From an uncultured bacterium (GTDB taxonomy: Bacteria > Patescibacteriota > Minisyncoccia > Phycocordibacterales > CAIZLB01), in assembly GCA_903936565.1 (NCBI GenBank), contig CAIZVZ010000007.1, positions 1 to 58,801 on the forward strand: 58,801 nt of DNA, in the 5' to 3' direction. The notes below the pieces were generated by a model that had not been told where the DNA came from, ran no database searches, and was given only the letters and a program-made list of their open reading frames with translations. Shown one piece after another: positions 16,148 through 34,200 of this stretch (its first letter is position 1; every line of letters starts with the position of its first letter). A program made the position numbers and the translations under genes.

Positions 16148-17749
16148 ATGACATCAACAGACTTAAAGACTGGGGACGCGGAAAACGCATCGGCAATATT
16201 GCCTGAAAACACCTATATTTCTCCTACAACAGGTAAAACCTATTACCCTGTAATTGGTCTTGAAATTCATGCGGAACTTAGGACTAATTCTAAAATGTTT
16301 TGTTCTTGTAGGAATAACACGGATGAAGAAAATCCTAATGTTAACATTTGTGCAATTTGTATGGGTCACCCTGGAACACTTCCTGTTATAAACAAAGAGG
16401 CAGTTAAGCATGTAATAAAAGTAGGAACTGCAATCGGTGCAAATATCGCCGACTATACAGAGTGGGATCGTAAAAACTATTTCTATCCAGATATTCCAAA
16501 AGGATATCAGATTTCTCAGTACGCATTCCCACTAATTAAAGGGGGTGTAATTAATGTTGATATTGGAGGTGGTAAGACACTATATCCAGTTGAAATTACA
16601 AGAATTCACCTTGAGGAAGATACTGCAAGTTCAAGTCATACTAAAGGTGACTTTAGTCTAGTTGATTTTAACAGAGCTGGTGTTCCTTTGATGGAGCTAG
16701 TAACTGAGCCTGTAATTCACAGCGCAAAAGTTGCTGGTGCATTTGCAAGAGAGCTTCAGTTGCTACTTAGATATTTAAATGCAGGTCACGCTAATATGGA
16801 AAAAGGGGAGATGAGAGTTGAGGTAAATATTTCCGTTTCAGAAACACCAGGAGTCTTTGGTACAAAAGTTGAAGTTAAAAATCTAAACTCATTTAGATCT
16901 GTTGAGCGTTCAATTGAATTTGAAATAAAGCGTCATGTTGATGTAATTGAAGAAGGAGGAAAGATTGTTCAGGAAACTAGAGGGTTTGACGAGACAACGG
17001 GTAAGACTTTTTCACAACGCGCAAAAGAAAACTCAAATGACTATAGATATTTCCCAGACCCAGACCTTCCAAAGATTTTTATATCTGAAATTCCAGAACT
17101 TACCCCTGATAAAATAAAAGCAGAAATCCCTGAGCTTCCTTGGGAGAAGCGAGCTAGATATAAGAAGGAGTATGGCATGAAGGATGAAGACGCTGAGATG
17201 TTTGTGCAGAATGATGTTTTCAGAGGCTTCTTCGATTCATTTGTTAGCGCTGAAAATTCAAGTGATACTTCTGTTGCCCCCACTCATTCTCCAGAAAAAA
17301 TTAAATTGGGAATCAACTACATTACATCAGACATTGCCGGCTTGGTTAAAAACACATCAGGTACAAATATTCAAATTTCAGTTCCATATTTTATTGAAAT
17401 GATTGAAATGATTGATAAGGGGGAGTTGTCTTCTCGTGCGGCTAAAGATATTTTAATGAAATATTGGGGGGAGAAATTGACTGATGGAACTTTTGTAAGT
17501 AATACAAAGGAGGAAACTCGATCTCCAAAACAAATTGCGGAGGAGGAGGGTTTAATTCAGAAGAACGATCCTGAAGCTCTTAAGAAAATGATTCAAGAAA
17601 TCATAGATGCAAATGCTGGGGTGGTAGCAGAATATAAAGCTGGAAAAGAGGCGTCTCTGCAATTTCTATTGGGACAAGTAATGAAGGTAAGTAAGGGGGC
17701 GGTGAATCCGGGTTTGGCCAAGGAAACACTCATGGAGATGCTTAAATAA
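16148..17749 (+). CDS. gatB: Asp-tRNA(Asn)/Glu-tRNA(Gln) amidotransferase subunit B
   Basis: VIGLEIH, RKNYFYPD.PKGYQISQ, HLEED, DFNRAGVPLME, DYRYFPDPDL; start moved to ATG 16148. Confidence 0.97.
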   Translation: MTSTDLKTGDAENASAILPENTYISPTTGKTYYPVIGLEIHAELRTNSKMFCSCRNNTDEENPNVNICAICMGHPGTLPVINKEAVKHVIKVGTAIGANIADYTEWDRKNYFYPDIPKGYQISQYAFPLIKGGVINVDIGGGKTLYPVEITRIHLEEDTASSSHTKGDFSLVDFNRAGVPLMELVTEPVIHSAKVAGAFARELQLLLRYLNAGHANMEKGEMRVEVNISVSETPGVFGTKVEVKNLNSFRSVERSIEFEIKRHVDVIEEGGKIVQETRGFDETTGKTFSQRAKENSNDYRYFPDPDLPKIFISEIPELTPDKIKAEIPELPWEKRARYKKEYGMKDEDAEMFVQNDVFRGFFDSFVSAENSSDTSVAPTHSPEKIKLGINYITSDIAGLVKNTSGTNIQISVPYFIEMIEMIDKGELSSRAAKDILMKYWGEKLTDGTFVSNTKEETRSPKQIAEEEGLIQKNDPEALKKMIQEIIDANAGVVAEYKAGKEASLQFLLGQVMKVSKGAVNPGLAKETLMEMLK

Positions 17750-17814
17750 AAACTTTAGGAATTCTTTACAAAACTTTCATAAGGACATTAGGGTAGTTTT
17801 GCTAAACTGCCTCG

Positions 17815-18204
17815 ATGTTAAAAAGATTTCTAGAGTGGATACATACAAAAAGTAAAATAGACGGAAAAGAAAGAAAAATAAACTCAATACTGGAAGGGGG
17901 AGTATATTGGTGTTCTTTGGGTGAAAATATTGGTGATGAAGAAAACGGTAAGGGAGATATTTTCCGCCGGCCCGTTTTGATATTTAAAAAGTTCAACAAC
18001 AACATATTTTGGGGGATACCTATGAGTACAAAGAATAAAGAAAATAAATATTATGTTAAGGTCTTACTTAAGGACGTGGAGCAATCAGCAATGATTTCTC
18101 AACTTAGGATTCTAGACACTAAAAGACTTGATACCTATATCGGATACATATCAAAACCTGATTTTATAAGAATACAAAACGCCGTAAGAAATCTTATAAA
18201 ATAA
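17815..18204 (+). CDS. PemK/MazF family endoribonuclease toxin, copy 1 (no adjacent antitoxin ORF)
   Basis: G.VYWCSLGENIGDEENGKG..FRRPVLI, GIPMST, SQLR..D.KRL. Confidence 0.85.
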   Translation: MLKRFLEWIHTKSKIDGKERKINSILEGGVYWCSLGENIGDEENGKGDIFRRPVLIFKKFNNNIFWGIPMSTKNKENKYYVKVLLKDVEQSAMISQLRILDTKRLDTYIGYISKPDFIRIQNAVRNLIK

Positions 18205-18209
18205 ACAAC

Positions 18210-18262
18210 CGTTAAGCCCGAGCTCTTTTGGAACTCGGGCGTTTGGGACAACCCATTTGTGG
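18210..18262 (-). ncRNA. Candidate structured antisense RNA at toxin 3' end, copy 1
   Basis: Minus-strand GGG-UUGU-CCC and GCCCGAGUUC-CAAAA-GAGCUCGGGC hairpins downstream of a minus-strand promoter; conserved at 34116-34168; 3' end unknown. Confidence 0.55.
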
Positions 18263-18266
18263 ATAT

Positions 18267-18294
18267 ATAATATCAAACACTGAATTCTTGTCAA
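18267..18294 (-). promoter_or_regulatory. Antisense sigma70-type promoter convergent on toxin 1
   Basis: Minus strand TTGACA-16 bp-TATTAT with TGn extension. Confidence 0.7.
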
Positions 18295-24575: not shown

Positions 24576-24646
24576 TGCGGGATCGTCTAATGGTAGGACT
24601 ATGGTTTCTGGAACCATGTATCTAGGTTCGAATCCTAGTCCCGCAG
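24576..24646 (+). tRNA. tRNA-Gln (anticodon CTG), CCA not encoded
   Basis: Acceptor TGCGGGA/TCCCGCA, D-loop TAATGGTA, anticodon arm ATGGT-TTCTGGA-ACCAT, T arm CTAGG-TTCGAAT-CCTAG. Confidence 0.96.
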
Positions 24647-33557: not shown

Positions 33558-33722
33558 AATTAGGTAAAAGAATACACACCGCCGCAATCCTTTTTTGGGT
33601 TTAGAAGGGTTTCTCAATTTTCTCATGTTTGCTTAATTTGGGTTAAAATCCGTCTAAAGTTTTTGATATTTCTTTAGAAAATCTTCATCAGAAATTTGGG
33701 GTTAATTTGTCATTATCTTTTG

Positions 33723-34121
33723 ATGCTAAAAAGATTTTTAGAATGGATAAAAGCAAAGATATATATAAATTCTCAAATAAGAACTGGTACAGTAATCAAC
33801 GAGAGGGAGGTTTATTGGTGCGCTTTGGGTGAAAATGTTGGTGATGAAGAAAATGGAAAGGGAGATATGTTCCGCAGACCTGTTTTGGTGTTTAAAAAGT
33901 TCAACAATAATATTTTTTGGGGAATACCAATGAGTACTAAAAACAAAGAAAGTTTTTACTATATTAAGGTGACACTAAGAGATATTGAACAGTCCGTCAT
34001 ACTTTCTCAACTTAGATTGTTGGGCACGAAGAGACTAGATACAAAGATAGGATATCTATCAGAACTCGATTTCTTAAAGATTCAAGATTCAATTGTAAAT
34101 ATAATAAGATTCAAACGTTAA
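33723..34121 (+). CDS. PemK/MazF family endoribonuclease toxin, copy 2 (no adjacent antitoxin ORF)
   Basis: Close paralog of 17815 (MLKRFLEWI, YWCALGENVGDEENGKGDMFRRPVL, WGIPMSTKNKE). Confidence 0.85.
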   Translation: MLKRFLEWIKAKIYINSQIRTGTVINEREVYWCALGENVGDEENGKGDMFRRPVLVFKKFNNNIFWGIPMSTKNKESFYYIKVTLRDIEQSVILSQLRLLGTKRLDTKIGYLSELDFLKIQDSIVNIIRFKR

Positions 34122-34168
34122 GTCCGAGCTCTTTTGGAGCTCGGACGTACGGGATAGCCCATTTGTAT
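34116..34168 (-). ncRNA. Candidate structured antisense RNA at toxin 3' end, copy 2
   Basis: Minus-strand GGG-CUAU-CCC and GUCCGAGCUC-CAAAA-GAGCUCGGAC; compensatory change vs copy 1. Confidence 0.55.
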
Positions 34169-34172
34169 ATAT

Positions 34173-34200
34173 AGTTTATCAAAAGTTTTTTTGCTGTCAA
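34173..34200 (-). promoter_or_regulatory. Antisense sigma70-type promoter convergent on toxin 2
   Basis: Minus strand TTGACA-16 bp-TAAACT with TGn extension, same geometry as copy 1. Confidence 0.7.

Follow-up and report, generated by a model that had tools for sequence, protein, structure and literature searches.

Toxins of the MazF/PemK family are among the best studied, and they are treated as strictly type II, with a protein as the antitoxin. Convergent antitoxin RNAs that overlap the 3' end of the toxin transcript belong to type I systems; examples are txpA/RatA and bsrG/SR4 of Bacillus subtilis and Fst RNAI/RNAII of the Enterococcus faecalis par locus. Here we describe MazF/PemK genes that appear to be arranged in the second manner. 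They lie on contig CAIZVZ010000007.1 of assembly GCA_903936565.1, a stretch of 58,801 nucleotides from an uncultured bacterium of the Patescibacteriota, or Candidate Phyla Radiation (CPR). This whole stretch is referred to as the window. A first-pass annotation of the window had put forward the idea of a ~550-bp, self-contained module: a structured convergent RNA would control a MazF/PemK toxin that lacks an antitoxin gene. The comparative evidence presented below supports such a module. That a small-RNA gene exists and is linked to the toxin is well supported, and the RNA is likely, in our view, to act on the toxin as its antitoxin or as a negative regulator.

Two PemK/MazF genes and the predicted RNA genes that face them

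The window contains two toxin genes.

17815..18204, plus strand: PemK/MazF toxin gene, copy 1; 129 aa, MazF barrel plus N-terminal helix (PF02452, E 2.2e-11)
33723..34121, plus strand: PemK/MazF toxin gene, copy 2; 132 aa from the conserved ATG (PF02452, E 5.6e-9)

The profile scores for PF02452 (PemK_toxin) are 44.3 bits for copy 1 and 36.6 bits for copy 2, with a curated cut-off of 23.1, and the two proteins are 67% identical. For copy 2 the preferred start is the ATG at 33723, since it aligns with those of the other copies; the upstream TTG at 33696, which heads the reading frame in the list of open reading frames (ORFs), is not used. A search of the whole genome (1.04 Mb in 21 contigs, 98% complete) located a third copy, with the same architecture, on another contig (G000:C5, L002:1420-1818). 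The first-pass annotation had described a paralogous pair without an adjoining antitoxin ORF; both genes are present where it placed them, and the third copy can now be added. No candidate antitoxin ORF of ≥30 aa lies beside any of the three copies, and none has the adjacent, co-transcribed protein antitoxin gene of a type II system. The genome-wide search for an antitoxin domain, which covered the MazE/AbrB-type fold only, found no PF04014 domain.

In the AlphaFold2 model of the toxin (predicted local distance difference test, pLDDT, 85), a MazF barrel carries an additional helix at the N terminus, residues 2-17, and there is a helix at the C terminus. Among the top Foldseek matches listed, all are of the MazF/PemK type; these include MazF-mt9, MazF-mt1, Staphylococcus aureus MazF and EndoA, each at E ~1e-6, and Escherichia coli MazF. 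The best profile match in the PDB is B. subtilis EndoA (E 6e-8). In an alignment of 23 sequences R52-P53 is invariant and S/T71-72 is conserved; from the literature on the B. subtilis and E. coli proteins, we take these Arg-Pro and Ser/Thr motifs to be MazF active-site residues. Membership of PF02452 is indicated both by the profile score and by the SH3-like barrel with its conserved Arg and Ser/Thr. The N-terminal helix, in which M1, K3, F5, W8 and K12 are invariant, is a family-specific addition to the MazF core. By its fold and motifs, the toxin looks like an active MazF/PemK endoribonuclease. The type III toxin families (ToxN/AbiQ, CptN and TenpN) were also considered. They were ruled out by the score of the CptIN hidden Markov model (HMM; 16.3 bits, E 0.0065, against a cut-off of 90), by PADLOC, which gave no match, and by the classical MazF fold of the structural matches.

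On the opposite strand, each toxin gene is faced by a promoter and a predicted small RNA.

18267..18294, minus strand: small-RNA promoter, copy 1; −35 TTGACA at 18294-18289, 16-nt spacer ending TG-A, −10 TATTAT at 18272-18267 (11 of 12 matches, TG present)
34173..34200, minus strand: small-RNA promoter, copy 2; −35 TTGACA at 34200-34195, 16-nt spacer with TG, −10 TAAACT at 34178-34173 (10 of 12 matches)
18196..18260, minus strand: predicted small RNA, copy 1; start near 18260 (A, 7 nt after the −10), 5' tail ACAAAU, P1 at 18255-18244, P2 at 18240-18216
34102..34166, minus strand: predicted small RNA, copy 2; start near 34166, P1 at 34162-34149, P2 at 34146-34122

Both promoters resemble the σ70 consensus closely, and each is the top-scoring promoter-like site of its region. 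The minus-strand arrangement TTGACA-16-TGn(TATTAT/TAAACT) given by the first-pass annotation is present at 18294-18267 and 34200-34173, and the starts that it predicted near 18260 and 34166 agree with the spacing from the −10 element. Reading along the minus strand, TTGACA is followed by a 16-nt spacer ending TTTGA, the −10 hexamer, six nucleotides, ACAAAU, a first hairpin (P1, GGG-N4-CCC, 3-5 bp) and a linker of 4-5 nt. A second hairpin (P2) has a 10-bp GC-rich stem and a CAAAA loop; in the window copies it leads into CUUAACG and an A/U-rich tail. The RNA is predicted to be ~55-65 nt long. In copy 1 the tail after P2 would cross the toxin stop codon at 18202-18204. In copy 2, P2 abuts the stop codon at 34119-34121, and the tail overlaps the last toxin codons. 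Similarity between the copies ends exactly at the −35 hexamer and the promoter spacer has diverged, which points to a recurrence beyond chance. We infer the transcription of the small RNA, and its ends, from these sequence features.

The ACAAAUGGG-N4-CCC element and the 10-bp stem with its CAAAA loop fold as had been predicted. The folding energy is -24.1 kcal/mol for copy 1 (z -3.8) and -24.2 kcal/mol for copy 2 (z -5.2), and the z-scores of the predicted RNAs range from -3.8 to -6.6. The compensatory C-G to U-A exchange between the copies is real. So is the copy 1 pair said to work on the minus strand only: because of this U.G pair, the minus-strand fold is 3.9 kcal/mol better than that of the plus strand (-20.2 kcal/mol).

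Homologous elements were collected with covariance models. RNAalifold, applied to a plain MAFFT alignment, returned no structure, the variable hairpin being misaligned; this approach was replaced by a hand-given structure and realignment to the covariance model. The first model, R1, was built from 21 sequences with the hand-given structure, and the second, R2, from 43 hits. The models match copy 1 at 92 and 93.5 bits and copy 2 at 92.8 and 93 bits. In the 43-sequence alignment, all 13 base pairs have changed on both sides, and pairing is kept in 92% of cells. The observed score was not reached in any of 500 shuffles; with slid partners it is at most 0.14, compared with 0.52. The TTGACA hexamer is kept in 40 of the 43 homologues and the TG and −10 motifs are conserved; identity in the spacer is 0.46.

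Several lines of evidence bear on the strand. On the RNA strand the alignment has 33 G.U and 6 A.C pairs, and the fold antisense to the toxin is the more stable in 34 of 42 distinct sequences; these counts come from related sequences whose alignment had been fitted to the model. P2 of distant members has a U-tract behind it on the RNA strand only, for example GGGGGAUAUUUUUAUG. On the toxin strand of the same members, an A-run precedes P2 and no U-run follows. The terminator scan found no terminator-like site on the toxin strand at either window locus, in keeping with the first-pass statement that the block is not a plain toxin terminator. Hence, P2 would act as a terminator in one direction only, that of the small RNA, and the toxin gene would lack an intrinsic terminator of its own. 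Jointly, these lines are consistent with an RNA that is antisense to the toxin. In silico the locus thus shows what defines a type I antitoxin, a cis-encoded antisense RNA gene overlapping the toxin transcript, in its convergent promoter, its terminator hairpin and its tail over the stop codon. The hallmark toxin of type I systems, a small hydrophobic peptide (exceptions are known), is absent; the protein is soluble, MazF-folded and 129-132 aa long.

The similarity common to the three copies extends ~95 nt downstream and ~70 nt upstream of the coding sequence. Two upstream blocks lie in the window.

17745..17814, plus strand: conserved block upstream of copy 1; extended −10 TGC TAAACT at 17800-17808, 6 nt before the ATG (three-copy alignment)
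33653..33722, plus strand: conserved block upstream of copy 2; extended −10 TGT CATTAT at 33708-33716, 6 nt before the ATG at 33723 (three-copy alignment)

The upstream similarity, put at ~35 bp by the first-pass annotation, is real and reaches ~70 nt before the ATG. All three copies have TGn and a −10-like hexamer (TAAACT, CATTAT or TAGACT) exactly 6 nt 5' of the ATG, and in most homologous loci this spacing is 6-7 nt. The extended −10 is probably the toxin's own promoter, in which case the mRNA would be leaderless. With the −10 box so placed, no co-transcribed antitoxin gene would fit upstream. A conserved TTCTTTAnAAAA(n)TTCAT element also lies ~40-60 nt before the toxin ATG (17745-17790 and 33653-33700 in the window; L002:1355-1395 for the third copy). 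The TTCTTTAnAAAA element exceeds the needs of a −35/−10 promoter and might be an UP element or an operator.

The surroundings of the three copies differ. Copy 1 is flanked by gatB and the GAPDH gene, and copy 2 by genes for a META-domain protein and a 125-aa membrane protein. Neighbours of the third copy include a 375-aa ORF with a weak match to the rve integrase core (L002:17-1144, plus strand, E 0.004) and a RelB antitoxin with a truncated YafQ-like toxin (L002:1995-2491, minus strand). This setting suggests a mobile element or a toxin-antitoxin island.

Linkage of the RNA gene to the toxin, and loss of the toxin

Named assemblies were scanned at one genome per species. Relatives of the toxin, with 35-76% identity, are encoded at 30 loci, all in assemblies of the CPR/Patescibacteria type (labelled Parcubacteria, Paceibacteria, Vogelbacteria, Peregrinibacteria, Doudnabacteria or 'Saccharibacteria'). 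The element can be recognised downstream of the toxin gene in almost all of them, and R2 matches at the toxin 3' end in 27 of these loci. The exceptions are L016, where the gene is truncated near a contig end and no match was found, and L031 and L032, which have weak R1 matches only.

Fifty genomes from the taxonomic family of the window gave 65 R1 matches (E ≤1e-3) in 27 genomes. The toxin profile gave 169 matches in 41 of the 50, with up to 9 in a genome of 0.6-1 Mb; 150 of the 169 entered the linkage counts. Among the toxin matches listed, 49 of the 65 R1 matches converge on a PemK 3' end. Close toxins, with scores of ≥150 bits, have a convergent R1 match in 32 of 36 cases. Three of the four that do not are pseudogenes or gene fragments; the fourth, intact gene (G023:C1) has a divergent form of the element that can be recognised by eye. 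At a lenient threshold, five genomes had a convergent match at 29 of 36 toxins. Five of these seven misses were inspected along with G023:C1, and all six show, by eye, a convergent −35/−10 pair and then two hairpins.

In a phylum-wide sample of 150 genomes, the toxin subfamily occurs at 25 loci in 16 genomes from many families. R2 matches at the toxin 3' end in 20 of the 25 loci, counting one ambiguous case with a partial toxin match (L071), and 3 of 23 matches lie elsewhere. A whole-genome R2 search of the same 150 genomes, with 27 candidates scored per genome, gave matches at E ≤1e-3 in 2 genomes. The low number is due to the thresholds, since direct searching of the toxin loci with R2 gives the 20 of 25. 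The geometry does not vary in the phylum sample: P2 lies directly against the stop codon of the toxin. Conservation and covariation extend, for the promoter, both helices and their strand, down to toxins of ~35% identity, and every intact toxin inspected carries the RNA. Recurrence in the named, family and phylum sets indicates that the linkage is old and close to universal for the toxin subfamily. The covariance-model search of CPR genomes that the first-pass annotation had called for therefore does find the element coupled to PemK 3' ends (49/65, 29/36 and 6/6 of the inspected exceptions).

The coupling is not strict in the other direction. Among the toxin matches listed, 16 of the 65 strong R1 matches are not beside a PemK gene. 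The earlier expectation of linkage thus holds for most matches; the element is not bound to pemK without exception, about a quarter of strong matches being orphans, mostly left by toxin deletion. At the syntenic site of copy 2 in a sister genome (G003:C11), the toxin promoter and nearly the whole coding sequence are gone, and the last ~20 nt are kept together with a complete RNA gene. At the syntenic site of copy 1, one genome (G003:C20) has gatB followed directly by the RNA gene; another (G005:C40) has gatB, ~85 nt of unrelated sequence, a different RNA allele and then GAPDH. Further orphans lie after dnaK, ndk, an ABC-F gene and hicBA, and the orphan of L045 keeps the final toxin codons at its 3' end. 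In total, at least nine toxin-less RNA genes have intact promoters; no intact toxin without the RNA was found among those inspected. Such asymmetric loss, with the RNA kept and the toxin deleted, is what a toxin/antitoxin dependency predicts, within the limit that partially deleted RNA genes escape the model and that selection for orphan retention is not proven.

Some orphans have neighbours of their own. Two are convergent to hicB-like/hicA pairs and 45-60 nt downstream of them (L046:101-803 and L047:224-993; HicA PF07927, E 3e-11), and these appear to be remnants of a deleted PemK gene in toxin-antitoxin islands. A diverged element with no toxin nearby (G000:C6:63309-63406, plus strand, equivalent to L037:1501-1598; also L052:901-1000 and L054:901-1000) scores 46 bits with R1 and 64 bits with R2. 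Its promoter is the same, its P1 is ACAAAUAGAC-UUUU-AGUC, and a terminator hairpin is present. Three genomes of the genus have it ~5-15 nt before a NADAR gene of the same strand (PF08719, E 2e-14), and it could be an orphan antitoxin or a NADAR leader.

Other arrangements were also observed. In L014:934-2498 three diverged PemK genes stand in tandem, each with its own diverged convergent RNA (1321-1418, 1869-1967 and 2376-2498), and two tandem modules are found in each of L013 and G001:C1:244875-245949. On this evidence the modules behave as self-contained duplicating units. Elsewhere the PemK domain is the N-terminal part of a frame of 469-493 aa or 768-782 aa (L050, which is G044:C79; G040:C4, G042:C2, G024:C8, G023:C28, G015:C24, G014:C7:10802 and G007:C73); in L050 the small-RNA element is at the 3' end of the long ORF and not after the PemK domain. 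Loci with PemK homologues on predicted viral contigs (IMG/VR) have a convergent match in 2 of 8 cases (L094:1501-1906, 42.5 bits; L090:781-1245, 26 bits). A conserved 16-mer had 19 exact matches in a search of viral contigs; 18 are chance occurrences and not the motif, and one, L110, is weak (24.9 bits). Uroviricota members are also listed in the nearest ESM-Atlas cluster. CPR phages may carry the module; alternatively, the viral assignment of these contigs may be wrong. Finally, a putative RNase gene of the NYN-domain type (PF01936, E 3e-12; L007:619-1125, plus strand) is faced by a TTGACA/−10 promoter and by a terminator hairpin that overlaps its 3' end (L007:1092-1179, minus strand). This element scores 27.6 bits and lacks a clear P1. 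Other RNase toxins of these bacteria may therefore be served by a comparable convergent RNA.

A possible antisense mechanism and its alternatives

We propose that each locus would be a two-gene module of toxin and RNA antitoxin. The extended −10 promoter of the toxin gene would yield a leaderless, monocistronic mRNA without an intrinsic terminator. The promoter on the opposite strand would make the ~55-65-nt RNA, composed of an A/U-rich 5' tail, P1, a short linker and the GC-rich P2; P2 and the U/A-rich tail that follows would terminate this RNA at the toxin stop codon. Since the toxin gene has no terminator, its transcription must run through the RNA gene, and the 3' end of the toxin mRNA is then fully complementary to the small RNA. 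Abundant small RNA would pair with this 3' end, nucleation being provided by the tail and by loop-loop contacts. The duplex would be cut; RNase III is encoded in the genome. The toxin mRNA would lose its 3' protection, and little toxin would be made. If transcription stopped or the locus were lost, the small RNA would decay and toxin would accumulate. We infer both pairing and neutralisation from sequence, the RNA-RNA pairing being known here only as the complementarity that overlap imposes. This specific mechanism, antisense action at the 3' end in the manner of type I systems, is put forward tentatively, and is slightly favoured over binding of the toxin in the manner of type III systems.

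Several observations weigh against antisense action. Among close relatives the 5' tail and P1 are 0.93-0.94 identical and P2 is 0.68-0.74 identical; a purely cis-antisense RNA needs no conserved primary sequence, and this conservation fits recognition by a trans factor or by the toxin protein. At 22 loci, predicted pairing between the small RNA and the toxin mRNA's first 40 nt gave no signal relative to shuffles (mean z 0.07). Control would then be exerted via the 3' end only, without a direct block of translation. Orphans with intact promoters have no target in cis. The strand statistics carry less weight than independent sequences would give, for the reasons stated above. An unlinked protein antitoxin of a fold other than MazE/AbrB is compatible with the genome search, since only the MazE/AbrB type was sought.

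The same conservation is central to the main alternative, that the small RNA neutralises the toxin protein directly, which we consider rather unlikely. Here, the tail and P1 would fill the RNA-binding groove of the MazF dimer as an uncleavable mimic of substrate or product; the tail occurs as ACAAAU, ACAUUC, AUAUUU or ACUUUU, and P2 would be a terminator and stabiliser only. The EndoA and S. aureus MazF group cuts U^ACAU. These enzymes are the closest solved relatives by profile, and an RNA starting at the A of (U)ACAU resembles the 3' product of such a cut. The linker keeps a CG/ACGA motif. Variants of the tail and P1 track the toxin subfamilies, but this can be plain co-descent, and the second position of the tail is C, U or A even in close relatives, as would not be expected of a strict recognition site. 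In genomes with several toxin paralogues, orphan RNAs persist with their promoters intact, as expected of a protein binder that acts in trans. The weak similarity to the CptIN HMM points the same way, yet it is far below the cut-off; the fold is that of a classical MazF, and no ToxN-type chain is among the top matches listed. Known type III antitoxins are tandem repeats upstream on the same strand, and here there are no repeats and the RNA is convergent. The fullest version of direct neutralisation is also doubtful. In this version a single-unit convergent RNA, its 5' end mimicking the cleavage product, would sit as an uncleavable pseudo-substrate in the dimer groove of a canonical MazF/PemK. 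If direct neutralisation were true, it would be a new toxin-antitoxin architecture that joins a type I gene layout to type III biochemistry. It would occur across Patescibacteria, where a genome of <1 Mb can have as many as nine diversified copies, and its probable role would be in phage defence or addiction.

Both of these readings take the RNA to be an antitoxin. It could instead be a real small RNA of another kind, either an independent regulatory or housekeeping RNA or a promoter-plus-terminator 'insulator' against read-through, next to which PemK cassettes merely insert or persist. The 16 unlinked matches described above, with their sites after dnaK, ndk, the ABC-F gene and hicBA, and the conserved variant before the NADAR gene in three genomes, are what this would lead one to expect. 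We judge it improbable. Most orphans are demonstrable toxin deletions that retain remnants of the toxin ends, every intact toxin inspected has the RNA, and the geometry of P2 and the stop codon is fixed across the phylum sample. Moreover, the RNA diversifies with each toxin paralogue, including in tandem arrays of three, as a single housekeeping RNA would not.

Control of the toxin by an unlinked protein antitoxin, or by an inhibitor built into the N-terminal helix, with the RNA only fine-tuning expression, is the least probable alternative: it can draw on the conserved helix added to the MazF core (residues 2-17) and on the solitary MazF of Myxococcus with its unlinked regulator MrpC, as documented in the part of PMC2701414 consulted, but no MazE-type domain occurs in the genome, 3-9 diverged paralogues per genome, each with a co-diverging RNA, are unlikely to share one unlinked antitoxin, and the helix leaves a conserved RNA gene unexplained. 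An integron attC site was rejected as well; a GTTAAGC-like core stands beside the hairpin in the window copies, but by eye it is lost in distant members and there is no second core site.

If the modules work as proposed, a phylum-wide branch of MazF/PemK uses RNA in place of protein. This would blur the classification into types I, II and III, and would explain many 'orphan MazF' annotations in CPR genomes. It would also add a compact and abundant small-RNA family to organisms with almost no known regulatory RNA. Three to nine modules in a genome of 0.6-1 Mb are a large investment, which suggests phage defence, addiction or growth control in episymbionts. With a self-contained module of only ~550 bp, the hypothesis is directly testable.

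Comparison with described systems

The Rfam pemK motif, RF02913, is reportedly the Firmicutes motif described by Weinberg and co-workers in 2017. Like the element described here, it is a conserved structured RNA beside pemK genes, and the first-pass annotation had pointed to such a motif from Firmicutes as a reason to check novelty. The two do not match. RF02913 has no match at E ≤10 at either window locus, and its best match in the genome, on another contig, scores 19 bits with a gathering score of 34.8. With Rfam 15 at gathering score, the window has a single match, a tRNA gene (24576-24646, plus strand, 60 bits); at E ≤10 only chance matches (snoRNAs, csRNA) are added. A script quoted in bioRxiv 10.1101/2021.11.03.467129 labels RF02913 as Cis-reg. 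The main text of PMC5737381 does not mention pemK, the position of the motif relative to pemK being described in its supplements. Our literature search gave no precedent for an RNA antitoxin to a PF02452 toxin, or for the motif in CPR/Patescibacteria. The RNA is probably an antidote of a kind not described for the MazF/PemK family.

Type II MazEF and PemIK (Kis-Kid) share with the present system the toxin family, its fold and the motifs of its catalytic site. They differ in that here there is no adjoining protein antitoxin and no MazE/AbrB domain, the toxin gene has a leaderless-looking monocistronic start, and the protein has a family-specific N-terminal helix.

Type III systems (ToxIN, CptIN, TenpIN and AbiQ/antiQ) are alike in having a Kid/MazF-like endoribonuclease, control by non-coding RNA, which is proposed here, and no protein antitoxin. 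The presence of multiple diversified copies, as in type III, suggests a defence-like role. However, type III antitoxins are tandem repeat arrays, processed by the toxin and encoded upstream on the toxin strand, whereas here the RNA is single-copy and convergent. The window loci have no tandem repeats apart from a 16-nt AAGATTC run within the coding sequence of copy 2, and so nothing that corresponds to a type III array.

A type I precedent for antisense RNA controlling an RNA-cleaving protein, and not a membrane peptide, is SymE/SymR of E. coli. SymE has the AbrB/MazE fold, not that of MazF, and SymR overlaps the 5' end and start codon of its target.

The closest likeness is to txpA/RatA, bsrG/SR4 and Fst. 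Convergent overlap at the 3' end, a strong antitoxin promoter, hairpins at the overlap and an expected RNase III-dependent decay are common to these systems and the present one, where they are predicted from sequence. Conversely, the toxins of those systems are small hydrophobic membrane peptides, and here the toxin is a MazF/PemK endoribonuclease of 129-132 aa. The RNA here is also much shorter, at ~55-65 nt, with a conserved 5' tail and P1, and its overlap is limited to the last codons and the 3' untranslated region. As read from its sequence, the module is without the defining features of types II and III, and is a type I genetic layout with an atypical toxin.

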